From: Eledone cirrhosa
Taxonomy: Eukaryota
NCBI GenBank assembly: GCA_964016885.1
Contig: OZ024740.1
Location: forward strand, 252,526,001-252,590,000
Direction of reading: 5' to 3'
Length of the DNA stretch: 64,000 nucleotides
The position numbers and the translations under genes were made by a program. The notes under the pieces are model-generated. The model ran no database searches. It saw only the letters and a list, made by a program, of their open reading frames with translations, and had not been told where the DNA came from. Positions 5,715 to 51,499 of this stretch are shown piece after piece. Positions within the stretch are counted from its first letter, which is position 1; each line of letters begins with the position of its first letter.

Positions 5715-6390
5715 TACATACATATATGTATACAGACGTACAGTAGTATGGATATATATATATATATACATACATGCACACATATATATATGTACGTATG
5801 GATTCACCAAACATTTATTATAATGCTCTGTGTGTTTGTAAACAAACATCCCGTATTAAGCCGCAGTGTCTAGCAACCACCGTTGTTCGTTTGTTCAACA
5901 CTGACAAAGGAACGCTGTACTATTTTCAAGCTTGTCAGCAACGTATACCTTCCTGCCAGATTGTTGAACGTCCGAAAGTATATACTTTCCTTATGCATAT
6001 TAACGGCTGAGTAGCCCAATTTGCATATCGGCCGGGTGCACCGTAAAGTATATACTTTCGGACGTTCAACAATCTGGCAGGAAGGTATACGTTGCTGATG
6101 ATAGCTAACAAGCTTGAAACTAGTACAGCGTTCCTTTGTCAGTGTTGAATAAATGAGCAACGGTGGTTGCTAGACACTGCGGCTTAATACGGGATGTTTG
6201 TTTACAAACACACGGAGCATTATAATAAATGTTTGGTGAATCCATACGTACACATGTGTGCATGTATGAATATATATATACATACTACTGGACGTCTGTA
6301 TACATATAGGTATGTACGTGTACATACTTATATTTACGTAACAGCCGTACTAAGAGTGGGAAATGAAATTTCTTTTCATTTTTTCCGTTT
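5715..6390. mobile_element. Retrozyme-like non-coding element, fold-back copy (arms ~5715-6030 and ~6045-6390)
   Basis: Arms are reverse complements; the same unit occurs at 12786, 41396 and 59110; HHR intact in the right arm, core partly deleted in the left arm. Confidence 0.8.
6090..6130 (+). ncRNA. Minimal type I hammerhead ribozyme
   Basis: CGTTG CTGATGA TAGCT-AAC-AAGCTT GAAA CTAG TA CAGCG; palindromic stem III. Confidence 0.85.
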
Positions 6391-24684: not shown

Positions 24685-27420
24685 ACGTGGGAAAGTGAAA
24701 AATCGGAGAATAGACCGTTAAAACATGTTTATTTAAAATATCACCTATGTACGTTTCGCCCAGTTGGGCTTCTCAAGGGCATAAACAATCACAAGTGTTC
24801 CTTATATAGTTCGGAAAGAGTTTTGGGGGTTAAATCCACATCAAGATTCATTGCTCGCAAAAATATCTTGTTTTGATTTTGCAGCAGGTCAAGGGAGGTA
24901 ACTTTGGCCGGTGTTAGGGCAGTCCTTCCCGGATAATTTTTGGTATGCAAGGATTGTTTTCTGGGTGTTATTTTGCTGCGCCTGCCCGCCGGGGTGTTAA
25001 GACTTGTTGCAGGGAGATCCAGTGTGCTATTTCACTCTTCATTCTTAACCCATCTAAAGAAGGATATTTTTAAGCGATGTGTACAACTTATCGCTGTTTC
25101 AGCTCTGCTGTTGATGAGCTCGTGGGGTGCAGTTATGATGTGGTAGAGCTCCACGAGGCAAAGAACGCATTTCCTCTTGAAGTTGTACGGTGCAGCCCTG
25201 TCGACAATCTCCCAGTGCGTGGAGAAGCTAATGTTTAAGTCCTTTAGTGATGTGATGTAGTCCGCGAGCGAGGTGGAGTGCCTTAGTTTTCTATTTGTGA
25301 AAGAGTGGAGATGTGTTCGAAACCTAATTTTGAACGGGCCGGAGGTGGCCCCTATATAATGTTTAACGCTATTGTGGCTAGTAATAGTGCATCTATATAT
25401 AACCCTATCGGTCAAGCAGTATCCTCTAAGGGGCACCGTCTTCTGTCGCGGCAGTTGCAATTTCTGTCGCTGTTCCGTCTATTTCCCACGATAAGGCTAT
25501 CATTGTTGCTGCCTACGTTGCTAGCTGTGCTACCGCAGCTGTCGTTAGCACAATTACAGCCCACAGCACGCGGGATGGTGCGATTGTTATTCTGCACGCC
25601 ATGTTTTGCATGCTCCCCAGTCACTTCGCGGTCATTCTGGTTGCGTCTGCGGATGCCGTTGCCAACACTATTGGATGCTGTCAGGGAGTTGTTAAGGCCG
25701 ATACAGTTATTGTCAGGTGTAGGTGCATCTGCGTCGAGGTGCTGTGTCTTGGTGATCTTACTGTGGTTCGTTGTTCCTATGATGTCTGCTAGGTTAGGAG
25801 TAGTAGAGAAGGATATTTTTATATTGTTCCTATTAAGAATTTTTCTATACCTATGGTTGGGTGGGAAGTTCTTCTCTAAGGCTTCGAAGAATATCCGGGG
25901 TATGTTGGAGGCCACACTTCGAGAGTAGGGGGGGGTGGAACCATAGGACGTTACGGTGGCGATTACGTGTCCTTGTACTTTTGCTACGGGTGGTTCCATC
26001 TAAGTGATTGCTCATATGTGTGTTAATGCGCTGTCGCCCGTTCGGTGCCCCTTTCACTTTATGCTCGGGTGCACTCTTTCTACCACTTCCGTGTTTATGT
26101 ACACGAAGATGTTGGTTGGAAGGCGACAGCGCATTAACACACATATGCACACTCCTAGCCTAGCAGACATCATAGGAACAACGAACCACAGTAAGATCAC
26201 CAAGACACAGCACCTCGACGCAGACGCACCTACACCTGACAATAACTGTATCGGCCTTAACAACTCCCTGACAGCATCCAATAGTGTTGGCAACGGCATC
26301 CGCAGACGCAACCAGAATGACCGCGAAGTGACTGGGGAGCATGCAAAACATGGCGTGCGGAATAACAATCGCACCATCCCGCGTGCTGTGGGCTGTAATT
26401 GTGCTAACGACAGCTGCGGTAGCACAGCTAGCAACGTAGGCAGCAACAATGATAGCCTTATCGTGGGAAATAGACGGAACAGCGACAGAAATTGCAACTG
26501 CCGCGACAGAAGACGGTGCCCCTTAGAGGATACTGCTTGACCGATAGGGTTATATATAGATGCACTATTACTAGCCACAATAGCGTTAAACATTATATAG
26601 GGGCCACCTCCGGCCCGTTCAAAATTAGGTTTTGAACACATCTCCACTCTTTCACAAATAGAAAACTAAGGCACTCCACCTCGCTCGCGGACTACATCAC
26701 ATCACTAAAGGACTTAAACATTAGCTTCTCCATGCACTGGGAGATTGTCGACAGGGCTGCACCGTACAACTTCAAGAGGAAATGCGATCTTTGCCTCATG
26801 GAGCTCTACCACATCATAACTGCACCCCACGAGCTCATCAACAGCAGAGCTGAAACAGCGATAAGTTGTACACATCGCTTAAAAATATCCTTCTTTAGAT
26901 GGGTTAAGAATGAAGAGTGAAATAGCACACTGGATCTCCCTGCAACAAGTCTTAACACCCCGGCGGGTAGGCGCAGCAAAATAACACCCAGAAAACAATC
27001 CTTGCATACCAAAAATTATCCGGGAAGGACTGCCCTAACACCGGCCAAAGTTACCTCCCTTGACCTGCTGCAAAATCAAAACAAGATATTTTTGCGAGCA
27101 ATGAATCTTGATGTGGATTTAACCCCCAAAACTATTTCCGAACTATATAAGGAACACTTGTGATTGTTTATGCCCTTGAGAAGCCCAACTGGGCGAAACG
27201 TACGTAGGTGATATTTTAAATAAACATGTTTTAACGGTCTATTCTCCGATTTTTCACTTTCCCACGTGCTTACGCTCTGCTAACTCTCTAGCCCACTAAA
27301 TATTAACACTTCGAATATTTAATACTGCCGGCACTAGTATCGAGCACCTTTGGCATACGCTACTTGGCAAATAACTATATGTATCACCTATCCCTCCTTT
27401 TTTTCTCTCTTTCTCGATAC
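24685..27420. mobile_element. Naiad-type PLE as a ~1.1 kb inverted repeat (24685-25801 minus, 26151-27267 plus; plus tail runs to ~27420)
   Basis: Near-identical GIY-YIG peptides on both strands (VIYRC..HYIGATS; CxLCLxE; CTHR). Confidence 0.92.
27171..27210 (+). ncRNA. Hammerhead, U3-A8 variant (mirror copy at 24742-24781, minus)
   Basis: TTGAGAA GCCC-AACT-GGGC GAAA CGTACG TA GG; stem I short; AATAAA follows. Confidence 0.65.
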
Positions 27421-42768: not shown

Positions 42769-43903
42769 GTAAAGAAAACAGAACCCAGATCCCCTCAGGG
42801 AAATGGCCTTGCTCAGTATGTAGGAAAGGTGTAGGTAGGAACTCCATTCTTTGCCCCAAATGCAAACAATGGGTACACAAGAGATGTAGCGGGATCTCAG
42901 GAAGCTTAATTAAGAATGTAGGATTCACATGCAGCAGCTGTGCTGAAACAGCAAGCAAACAGCCACAGGAAACAAGTACCACCAATCTCTGGGAGGGCCC
43001 TGTAGAAACAGTAGACAGCTTCTGCTACCTAGGTGACCGAATTAGCAACGGAGGTGGGTGCTCAGAAAGTACAATAACTAGGGTAAGAACGGGATGGAAG
43101 AAGTTTAGGGAACTACTACCACTGCTAGCTGCAAAAGGCTTCTCCCTCAGAATGAAAGGCAGACTGTATGATGCGTGTATCCGAACAGCGATGTTGCATG
43201 GTAGTGAGACCTGGGCGCTGAAGGTGGAAGACTTACGTAGATTAGAGAGAAACGAAGCCTGCATGCTCCGATGGATGTGTAACAGTAATATACGTGAACG
43301 ACAAAGCATAAATGAATTGAGAGAGAGACTGAGCATAAGAGGAATCAAATGCTGCGTGCAGGAGAGGCGGTTACGCTGGTATGGACATGTGATGCGTATG
43401 AAGGATGACAGCTGCATAAAAAGGTGCAGAGCACTAGAAGTTGATGGAAACCGCGGAGTGGGGAGACCCAAGATGACTTGGGATGAGGTGATAAAAGCCG
43501 ACCTTACCCAACTACACCTCTCAAAGTCAATGACACACGACCGTGACTTCTGGCGTCACGCAGTAATACAGGGTACCCGACCTCCCATGGGTACATGCTG
43601 AAGCATATAAACAATATGCCCCCCCCCCCCACCGCAAGGTGGTCGTGGAGGTGCCACGGCAAAAAAGCACCCAGCCCACACTGTAAAGTGGACGTGTAGG
43701 CGCCACGAAAAAGCACCCAGCACTCACTGTAAATGAGGTTGGTGTTAGGAAGGGCATCCAGCTGTAGAAATCAAGCCAGATCAGTTCCTGTATGAGCAAG
43801 GCATGGTCAGCCGACCAGACACTGCCCACAACAGGACAACCCGTCTAACCCATGCTAGCGTGGAAGAACGGACGTAAAACGGTGATGATGATGATGATGA
43901 TGA
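42768..43903 (+). mobile_element. RTE LINE 3' portion (PHD-like finger to tail)
   Basis: WPCSVC..CPKC..HKRC..CSSC; RLRWYGHVMR; (GAT)n. Confidence 0.92.
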
Positions 43904-43961
43904 TATATATATATGAATATATATATATATATATGAATATATATATATATATATATATATA

Positions 43962-43995
<34 letters not shown>

Positions 43996-44137
43996 AATAT
44001 ATATATATATACATGGCTTAGTTCGAATCTAGCTGTCGAAACAGCTGGAACTCAGCCGTCGGCGTCCCAACTCTTTTCCTATATTTGTATATCTATATAT
44101 AGAAAGCATGTATATTTAGAAAACAGTGAGTGGAATT

Positions 44138-44184
44138 TGAAAATTGAATTAGGTCTCACCGTAACTTTGACTAAATTTAATAGT

Positions 44185-44240
<56 letters not shown>

Positions 44241-44800
44241 ATGTTGAAAAGGTGACACGCCGGAGAGAGATGTACAGTGCGCTATCAGGAAAACAGGGAC
44301 GGGACCACCAGTGTGTGGAATCTGTAACCTGTGAAAGGCGGACTATGGACGCGATAATTGGGAATGTGGATTGGAGCATAAATGAATACCTTTGTAACTA
44401 TATAGTTATAAAGGTATTTATTTAAGCTTTAATTTGTATTTTTAATTGTCGTGTCTGTGGTCTGCCTTTCATAGGTTGTAGATTCCATGCACTGGTGTTT
44501 TTTTCACTGTGTGTCTCTCTCTGGTGTGTTGCCTTTTCAACATATTGTATTTTAAAGAGCTCAGGATTTCTTCTCCTTTGAGCACATTATTTACAGGGAA
44601 TAGCGAGGGCTTATGGCTCCGTCAATTTATCGTGATATATATATATATTTACACAGAGGTATCCACTGTAAGTTGGATATATATATATATATATATATAT
44701 ATACTTGCCCATCTTTTTTTGTTCTGTGGGTTTATATGTCCCATTATTATTAGACTGTTGAATTTAGTCAAAGTTACATTGAGACCTAATTCAATTTTCA
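44138..44800. repeat. 48-bp inverted repeat pair (44138-44185 and 44753-44800) enclosing hairpin 1
   Basis: tgaaaattgaattaggtctca..gtaactttgactaaatt and its reverse complement. Confidence 0.85.
44235..44549 (+). ncRNA. Long G.U-rich fold-back hairpin 1 (putative hairpin RNA or hyper-edited retrocopy)
   Basis: ~140 paired positions centred at ~44401; 29 G.T wobbles, 0 A.C, 1 transversion, one internal loop. Confidence 0.7.
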
Positions 44801-44813
44801 TATATATATATAT

Positions 44814-45137
44814 AAACAAGAAGTGTAAGTCAACAGGTTGAAGTTACCTTTGTTTATTCGTGGCCGCTGCTATGTGTATTTCAGTGATAAGCCATTGTTC
44901 AACTGCTATGGCCTCATCAGGCGGTGGGAACTTTAAGAGAAGAAACAGGAAAACATAATGTTGTAAGATTTTACCTTGTTAATCTATAACAACATTGTTT
45001 TCCTGTTTTTTTCTGTTCAAGTTCTTGCCGCCTGATGGGGCCATGGCAGTTGAGTAGTGACATATCACTTAAATGTATATGGCAGCGGCTGTGAATAAAC
45101 AAGGCTAATTTTGACCTGTTGACTTACACTTCTTATT
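44814..45137 (+). ncRNA. Long G.U-rich fold-back hairpin 2 built from an HHR-like PLE pLTR
   Basis: 116-nt aligned core: 19 G.T, 1 A.C, 3 transversions; CTGATGA..GAAA on the minus strand of the left arm, CTGATGG in the right arm; AATAAA. Confidence 0.7.
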
Positions 45138-45236
45138 TTTACATTATTCCGGAGTAAACAGACCCACCTGTGCACTTCGTTGAGTGTTCTAACCTGCATA
45201 CTGAAGTGTCGGTAAACAACCAACACATACTCAAAG

Positions 45237-45288
<52 letters not shown>

Positions 45289-45367
45289 ATAGGTATATAT
45301 ATGTATAGGTATATATATGTATATATATGTATATATATATGTATATGTATTTATATATATATATATG

Positions 45368-45405
<38 letters not shown>

Positions 45406-45453
45406 TGTATATATATATATGTATATGTGTGTGTATATATGTATATGTATATG

Positions 45454-45493
<40 letters not shown>

Positions 45494-51113: not shown

Positions 51114-51499
51114 ATGTATCAACCGATACTCAACTTCCTAATTTCTCTATCTATCTCTTTTTTTTTTCCTCTCTCTATATATATTTCTCTCTGTTTCTTT
51201 ACATGAAGTTCTTCTCTTTATCTATCCTTCTATATCCCTCTATTTAGTCACATGCATTTCTTCTTTTTCTTCGTTTCTCTTTCTTTCTCTCTTTATCTCT
51301 TTCTTTTTACAACTGTCCACATTTTTTACTACCAAATCAACCTCCCAAATGCAAGGTGATTGAAAGGTATGTCGTATCTATTTATTTATAAGACTGTTTA
51401 TATTGTATTTTGTCTGAAGATGGCATAACATATTGTTAATATGATATCCCTGAAATATATATAACGAAATAAATATGGTTTTATAAATATAGTTTCCAT
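48615..51499 (-). mobile_element. Naiad-type PLE, 5'-truncated (48615-51011), with inverted pLTR (51012-51499)
   Basis: [14 protein letters not shown] as at 57016; 51012-51499 is the reverse complement of ~48719-49198. Confidence 0.9.
51408..51469 (+). ncRNA. Hammerhead with moderately extended stem II (copies at 48749-48810 and 61379-61440, minus)
   Basis: TTTTGT CTGAAGA TGG..CATATT-GTT-AATATG..CCCT GAAA TATATA TA ACGAAA, overlapping AATAAA. Confidence 0.75.

Follow-up and report, generated by a model that had tools for sequence, protein, structure and literature searches.

The window, by which we mean the whole stretch of 64,000 nucleotides of Eledone cirrhosa DNA that was analysed, contains a unit of about 1.5 kb that is present twice in the genome, in an edited form in the window and in an unedited form on contig C7. 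The features of this unit are listed below in window coordinates.

43908–44003, no strand: (TA)n tract at the left junction, of which the short TA run alone is common to C7; neither a target-site duplication nor an empty site is readable in the TA repeats.
44003–45490, + strand: the whole copied unit, with an unedited sister at G000:C7:213434 to about 214930; its 3′ end lies between about 45360 and 45490.
44003–44187, no strand: repeat piece of an unclassified family, matched by other copies at 79–90% over parts; no A>G changes.
44234–44550, + strand: hairpin 1, an inverted pair from a second repeat family, with 30 of 108 A changed to G relative to C7; the tail of its long arm runs to about 44636.
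44702–44803, no strand: repeat piece with the second arm of an unedited 51-bp outer inverted repeat.
44808–44975, − strand: left arm of hairpin 2, an antisense, short-ended copy of a Penelope pLTR, with 12 A>G on the + strand relative to C7.
44981–45144, + strand: right arm of hairpin 2, a sense copy of the same pLTR, with 8 A>G relative to C7 and two more (45091, 45103) in a stretch absent from C7.
45028–45085, + strand: minimal type I hammerhead motif, with helix I at 45028–45031/45082–45085, the core at 45032–45038 plus 45070–45073, and a palindromic helix III.
45145–45236, + strand: Penelope "tail" of the long-ended pLTR copy, single-stranded, with one A>G at its last base.
45237–45490, + strand: TA/TG microsatellite, common to C7 at least to about 45360; the likely start of reverse transcription.

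Hairpin 2 had been described in a sequence-only reading as the second hairpin of the window with G·T pairs on the same strand. When simple repeats were masked, 10 inverted repeats were found in the window, and only hairpin 2 and the pair at 44310–44493 (22 G·T : 0 A·C) reached p < 1e-4, in agreement with that description. The first 116 aligned columns of hairpin 2 (44814–44930 against 45137–45022) comprise 92 Watson–Crick pairs, 19 G·T pairs, 2 A·C pairs and 3 transversion pairs; the earlier count of 19 G·T pairs therefore stands, and its single A·C pair becomes two, the other lying at the outer end (44817/45135). Over these columns the excess of G·T over A·C has a binomial p of 2.2e-4. The full stem of 144 columns has 20 G·T and 2 A·C pairs, and the G·T pairs are even between the arms, with G in the left arm at 10 and in the right arm at 10.

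The direction of the changes was read from other genomic copies of the pLTR, a comparison that the sequence-only reading had itself proposed. Two genome searches with the arms gave 60 loci, representing 51 distinct copies; four of these come from the window locus and the C7 sister, and the majority base was taken from the 47 others. This majority is A at all 20 G·T sites (in at least 42 of the 47 copies at 19 sites and in 29 of 47 at one), and a family consensus of G/C was found at none. The C7 sister has A at 18 of the sites and a deletion at two. The partner T lies in a TpG context in only 7 of the 20 pairs, so the differences are not mainly at CpG; C>T change or CpG decay is ruled out as the cause by this count and by the family majority. 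Because that majority is A throughout, both arms have changed from A to G on the + strand, as had been claimed.

The C7 locus came to light among the matches of the arm searches (L002), with the same two hairpins and none of the changes. An alignment of window 44003–45240 to C7:213434–214680 (1,176 columns) gave 64 substitutions; on the + strand, 52 of them are A>G, 3 are T>C and one is G>A, C>T is absent, and the other 8 are transversions. Relative to C7, the A>G changes affect 30 of 108 A in hairpin 1 (three of them in an A run where the alignment is ambiguous), 20 of 105 in hairpin 2 and 2 of 173 in the rest of the unit, so that 50 of 213 stem A are changed against 2 of 173 outside the stems (Fisher p = 2.6e-12). 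Apart from the edits, divergence is about 1%, with 12 further substitutions and with indels private to either copy. Compared with its own family consensus, hairpin 1 has 9 A>G and 24 T>C, the T>C changes belonging to the antisense arm; among 43 other copies of that family, none has more than 1 A>G or 2 T>C, and the changes of hairpin 1 thus polarise in the same way as those of hairpin 2.

When two further parts of the unit were used as queries, matches of 99–100% came only from C1 and C7, the remainder being at ≤ 90% among the best 40 candidates per search. Based on these results, we infer that C7 carries a unique pile in which repeats of at least three families are nested, and that the window holds a recent copy of it. 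Two stretches, of 12 and 18 nt, are kept in the window and absent from C7, and five edits lie opposite them; the A at these five sites would have been paired in the template, which points to an earlier or another allele as the template. Judged by these stretches, the present-day C7 allele is not the exact template. The copy is also without 19 nt of the right arm of hairpin 1 (at window 44505) and without a short stretch beside a TA run (at window 44702), both of which are present in C7; each may be a template skip by the reverse transcriptase.

The changes carry the footprint of ADAR, namely A>G on one strand, confinement to long duplexes and depletion of 5′ G. By 5′ neighbour, the edited fraction is 29 of 80 for T (36%), 13 of 69 for A (19%), 6 of 37 for C (16%) and 2 of 26 for G (8%), which gives the order U > A > C > G (chi-square p = 0.005); depletion of upstream G is a mark common to ADAR editing in the part of the literature available to us (PMC5625713). 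A weak bias is seen at the 3′ neighbour (G 11/38, T 17/70, A 16/68, C 6/36). The fold predicted for the C7 sequence pairs 46 of the 52 edited A with U, and both arms of both hairpins are changed on one and the same strand, as a single RNA molecule requires. Contrary to a simple RNA model, no edit is found among the 35 A of a predicted 45-bp stem that closes over hairpin 1; this stem corresponds to the 51-bp inverted repeat 44135–44185/44753–44803, and it may never have formed, or long perfect duplexes may have been preferred. There is no skew in the flanking RTE piece on the left or in the element on the right. The change expected of APOBEC, G>A on the sense strand, accounts for 1 of the 64 substitutions. 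As for the enzyme, the adenosine deaminase family gave 12 matches at four genomic places, and the genome encodes an ADAR2-like deaminase (one frame against human ADAR2, E = 3e-102). The ADAR2-like deaminase domain at L095 and L096 (G000:C6:13.64 Mb) has only two long exons; the other deaminase loci are on C1 and C25.

The label pLTR that had been given to the arms was borne out. The hairpin 2 family ends an element with a degenerate RT and GIY-YIG at L238, where a tail copy (6399–6309) is followed by degenerate RT and GIY-YIG pieces (6228–3659) and the pLTR (2565–2306); the GIY-YIG end is common to L239 over about 1.3 kb. These RT and GIY-YIG motifs were identified by eye; Atlas gave GIY-YIG only as a lead (0.89) and placed the RT piece in unnamed clusters, and Pfam missed most Penelope frames. 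Family copies have two alternative 3′ ends about 100 nt apart, mostly just before (TA)n, and hairpin 2, as read from its sequence, is an antisense short copy head to head with a sense long copy. An RT and GIY-YIG frame of 921 aa beside a family copy (L138) was set aside as a different element with its own end; this open frame (L138:2652–5414, − strand) possibly belongs to a young Penelope-like element of another family.

The sense arm of C7 has a predicted minimal type I hammerhead layout that is intact (CUGANGA...GAAA...NUH, helices I–III), and CTGATGA occurs in 38 of the 47 family copies; the window has CTGATGG at 45032–45038. A search of Rfam returned no hammerhead match. The motif in the window is broken at three core positions, which we take to be A9 (A>G at 45038), the cleavage-site A17 (A>G at 45081) and G12 (G>T at 45070) of the hammerhead numbering. 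The first two changes are of the editing type and the third is not an edit, so the earlier statement that editing damaged the ribozyme applies to A9 and A17 and leaves the G12 change aside. Similarly, reverting the G to A restores CTGATGA, as had been proposed, and does not restore GAAA, since the right arm reads TAAA at 45070 through a G>T beyond the reach of ADAR. The identity claimed with the motif near 51408 extends to the letters GAAA-TATATA-TA, whereas the core at 51408 is CTGAAGA and the helices are different. In the predicted fold of C7, the motif would have been buried in duplex with the antisense arm before editing. Cleavage is reported to be unnecessary for insertion in vitro (PMC11167929), and the minimal hammerhead motifs of such elements are described as cleaving weakly and as dimers (PMC4209133). 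On this model the ribozyme damage is a by-product, incidental to the copying, because the motif would already have been in duplex and cleavage is dispensable for insertion.

TA runs are found at both junctions of the unit, with neither poly(A) nor an intron. The match to C7 stops at the 5′ end at the short TA run that abuts the long (TA)n tract. On the 3′ side, the copy goes past the pLTR end by 110 nt or more, into the microsatellite common to C7; two 28-mers that contain rare motifs, one at 45275 and one at 45335, are present in the C7 tract and occur 0 times in 1.45 Mb of other fetched DNA. Because the match runs into the microsatellite, the likely starting point of reverse transcription is inside it, away from the start used by the element itself, and the whole unit does not end at the element's RT start, where a Penelope-like element would end. 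Since the copy runs past the pLTR end, the Penelope RT is only a candidate for the enzyme. An upstream RTE piece (42773–43896), 97.5% identical to C7, was considered as part of the copy and rejected, the likeness being at the level of the family, in which other copies reach 99%; a genome search with this piece gave no match. In the long (TA)n tracts at window 45237–45490 and at L063:7190–9470, one strand has G and almost no C; this is explained by slippage of a TATG unit, and editing of self-pairing (UA)n RNA ahead of copying would look alike.

The inverted repeats that had been named as internal controls behaved as such: the G·T to A·C ratio was 6:2 in 1,109 pairs at 24.7–27.3 kb, 4:4 at 48.06 kb and, with the loop aligned in, 4:15 at 37.5 kb, where the true arms have only one A/G-type mismatch. 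The first of these (24685–27267) is a very young, unedited inverted repeat of 1.1 kb with 99.1% identity, a 350-nt spacer and a Penelope-like frame inside. A hairpin at 5805–6238 has 6 G·T and 0 A·C (p = 0.03), numbers too small for a call. We also surveyed 86 evenly spaced 10-kb stretches (860 kb) with simple repeats masked; 236 matches became 200 inverted repeats once overlaps were merged, 84 of them tight hairpins, and none was a further edited hairpin at p < 1e-4. The merging dropped overlapping matches at L216 with p down to 8e-7, which were in the A·C direction with about 30% transversions; these self-inverted matches (L216:578–1378) are probably a palindromic minisatellite. Among 190 inverted repeats in other fetched loci, none fell below p = 0.0039 except the hairpin locus itself. 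From the survey, the candidates L208 (17:2) and L220 (1:12) were rejected because the one-way A>G polarity failed, and a second skewed hairpin, C7:222190–224470 (139 G·T : 4 A·C), proved to be a TA/TG microsatellite artefact. Inverted repeats at large have G·T to A·C ratios without skew (306:301, 383:387 and 1159:1349). With none among the 200 sampled inverted repeats, such edited copies are rare.

We consider it very probable that the unit in the window derives from a read-through transcript of C7 that underwent hyper-editing by ADAR, was then copied into cDNA and, in the germ line, integrated into a (TA)n tract. This reading builds on what is seen directly at the two loci: a copy and its sister, and changes with a direction, a strand, a confinement to two long stems and a neighbour bias. 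The C7 locus would have been transcribed on the + strand as a read-through RNA of at least 1.35 kb (about 1.5 kb), in which each head-to-head pair would have folded into a duplex of about 130–150 bp. ADAR would have deaminated about a quarter of the stem adenosines of one molecule. A reverse transcriptase, primed from a nicked (TA)n target on the (UA/UG)n sequence that follows the pLTR tail, would have copied the inosine as G; the cDNA end may then have been joined via the short TA match at 44003. The sequence-only reading had proposed that a pLTR fold-back transcript was ADAR-edited and fixed in DNA. Its editing and fixation are retained here, and the transcript is replaced by one that runs through a nested repeat pile and carries both hairpins. 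If the reading is right, the Penelope RT would be the likeliest copying enzyme, by a modest preference, with a LINE RT as the alternative.

In an improbable two-step history, the unit was duplicated unedited from C7 and later overwritten in place by RNA-templated repair or gene conversion from cDNA. The end sequence would be identical, but the edits extend over 1 kb and through both hairpins of a 1.5-kb unit that has TA runs at its bounds, and the neighbours are unskewed; a single insertion suffices for everything, and an unedited copy with the same flanks was not found among the best 40 candidates per search. Very improbable is an artefact, in which the assembly took up an edited cDNA or systematic errors of base calling. 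Reference sequences can contain clusters of errors of one type, in the reported case chiefly G-to-A (PMC2873906), and read support is thin: of four runs placed at 92% likeness, X1 alone covers the edited left arm, at a depth of 1.9–5.8, and family copies dominate the placement. Six runs were listed in all, and none of them is recorded as RNA. Raw-read proof that the edits are in DNA is weak. Nevertheless, X1, which is perhaps the assembly sample, lists no differing letters over the part of the edited arm that it covers. An artefact is also unlikely because the copy lies in a 443-Mb contig with its own flanks and differs from C7 by the other substitutions and the private indels, and because errors would ignore the stems, the strand and the 5′ neighbour, all of which the changes respect. 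Just as improbable is adenine change at the DNA level (in fold-back cDNA, a cruciform or an RNA:DNA hybrid) or an error-prone reverse transcriptase: ADARs are able to act on the DNA strand of RNA:DNA hybrids and the unedited 45-bp stem is odd under the simple RNA model, but deamination of the cDNA strand predicts + strand T>C along the whole copy, a cruciform would affect both strands, polymerase error would not yield 52 stem-confined A>G with zero C>T, and inverted repeats at large are unskewed.

A-to-I editing is generally regarded as transient. If the edited read-through copy is accepted, the source-and-copy pair shows edits entering inherited DNA outside viruses, and it would imply that ADAR acts on RNA of repeats in cells of the germ line or the early embryo. 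A 2016 review, in the part available to us, left undetermined whether retroelements are shaped or held back through mutation by ADAR (PMC4982230); the pair makes such a mutational effect testable. The copy would be a record of editing on one molecule and would indicate that a microsatellite can serve as the starting point for copying host RNA. We give slightly less than even weight to a general germ-line write-back, in which any read-through (UA)n transcript, and not just the RNA of a transposon itself, could be primed on nicked (TA)n by a Penelope reverse transcriptase and its ADAR edits inherited. Were this true, each copy would preserve, like a fossil, the germ-line editing of a single molecule, with the unedited source still in the genome for comparison.

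Non-LTR retrotransposons copy host RNA to a new site in trans, by transduction and as processed pseudogenes. Here, too, host RNA would have been copied in trans; unlike processed pseudogenes, the copy has no poly(A), no intron loss and no readable target-site duplication, and a TA microsatellite stands at both junctions. In the accessible parts of the reports on Penelope elements, an element with a tail primes on both strands at AT-rich DNA (PMC11167929), and the pLTR has, as here, a minimal type I core, a palindromic helix III, opposite-strand pairs, two 3′ ends and AT-rich targets (PMC4209133, PMC11167929). In contrast to a Penelope element, the copied unit is a chimera of three repeat families and extends beyond the tail. 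ADAR hyper-editing of repeat dsRNA, Penelope included, is described with an exceptionally high rate in octopus and shares with our locus the inverted-repeat substrate, the clustering and the upstream-G depletion; in that description it is known from RNA reads, whereas here it is found in genomic sequence (PMC5625713). APOBEC-edited LTR retrotransposons are fixed in vertebrates and, in the available part of a screen that kept G-to-A only, were absent from 19 invertebrates (PMC4866542). They resemble the present case in being a burst of one type on one strand of a single retrocopy, polarised by the family consensus, and differ in that G>A arises on cDNA, whereas here A>G is confined to duplex and would precede reverse transcription. 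In our literature searches, which covered few subscription papers, no report of ADAR edits fixed in endogenous genomic copies was found. The closest parallel is ADAR-type A-to-G hyper-editing in the U3 of Rous-associated virus and in an inverted repeat of avian leukosis virus (Felder 1994; Hajjar and Linial 1995; as relayed by PMC12925331), in which dense A>G in an RNA inverted repeat was likewise recorded by reverse transcription. Those cases are infectious retroviruses, whereas the present one is an endogenous, non-viral host locus with an inherited copy and an unedited source that is still present. Within the sources covered, fixed ADAR-type edits were found reported for avian retroviruses only, and the special value of the present case lies in a unique host locus that stands as the source next to its edited copy.
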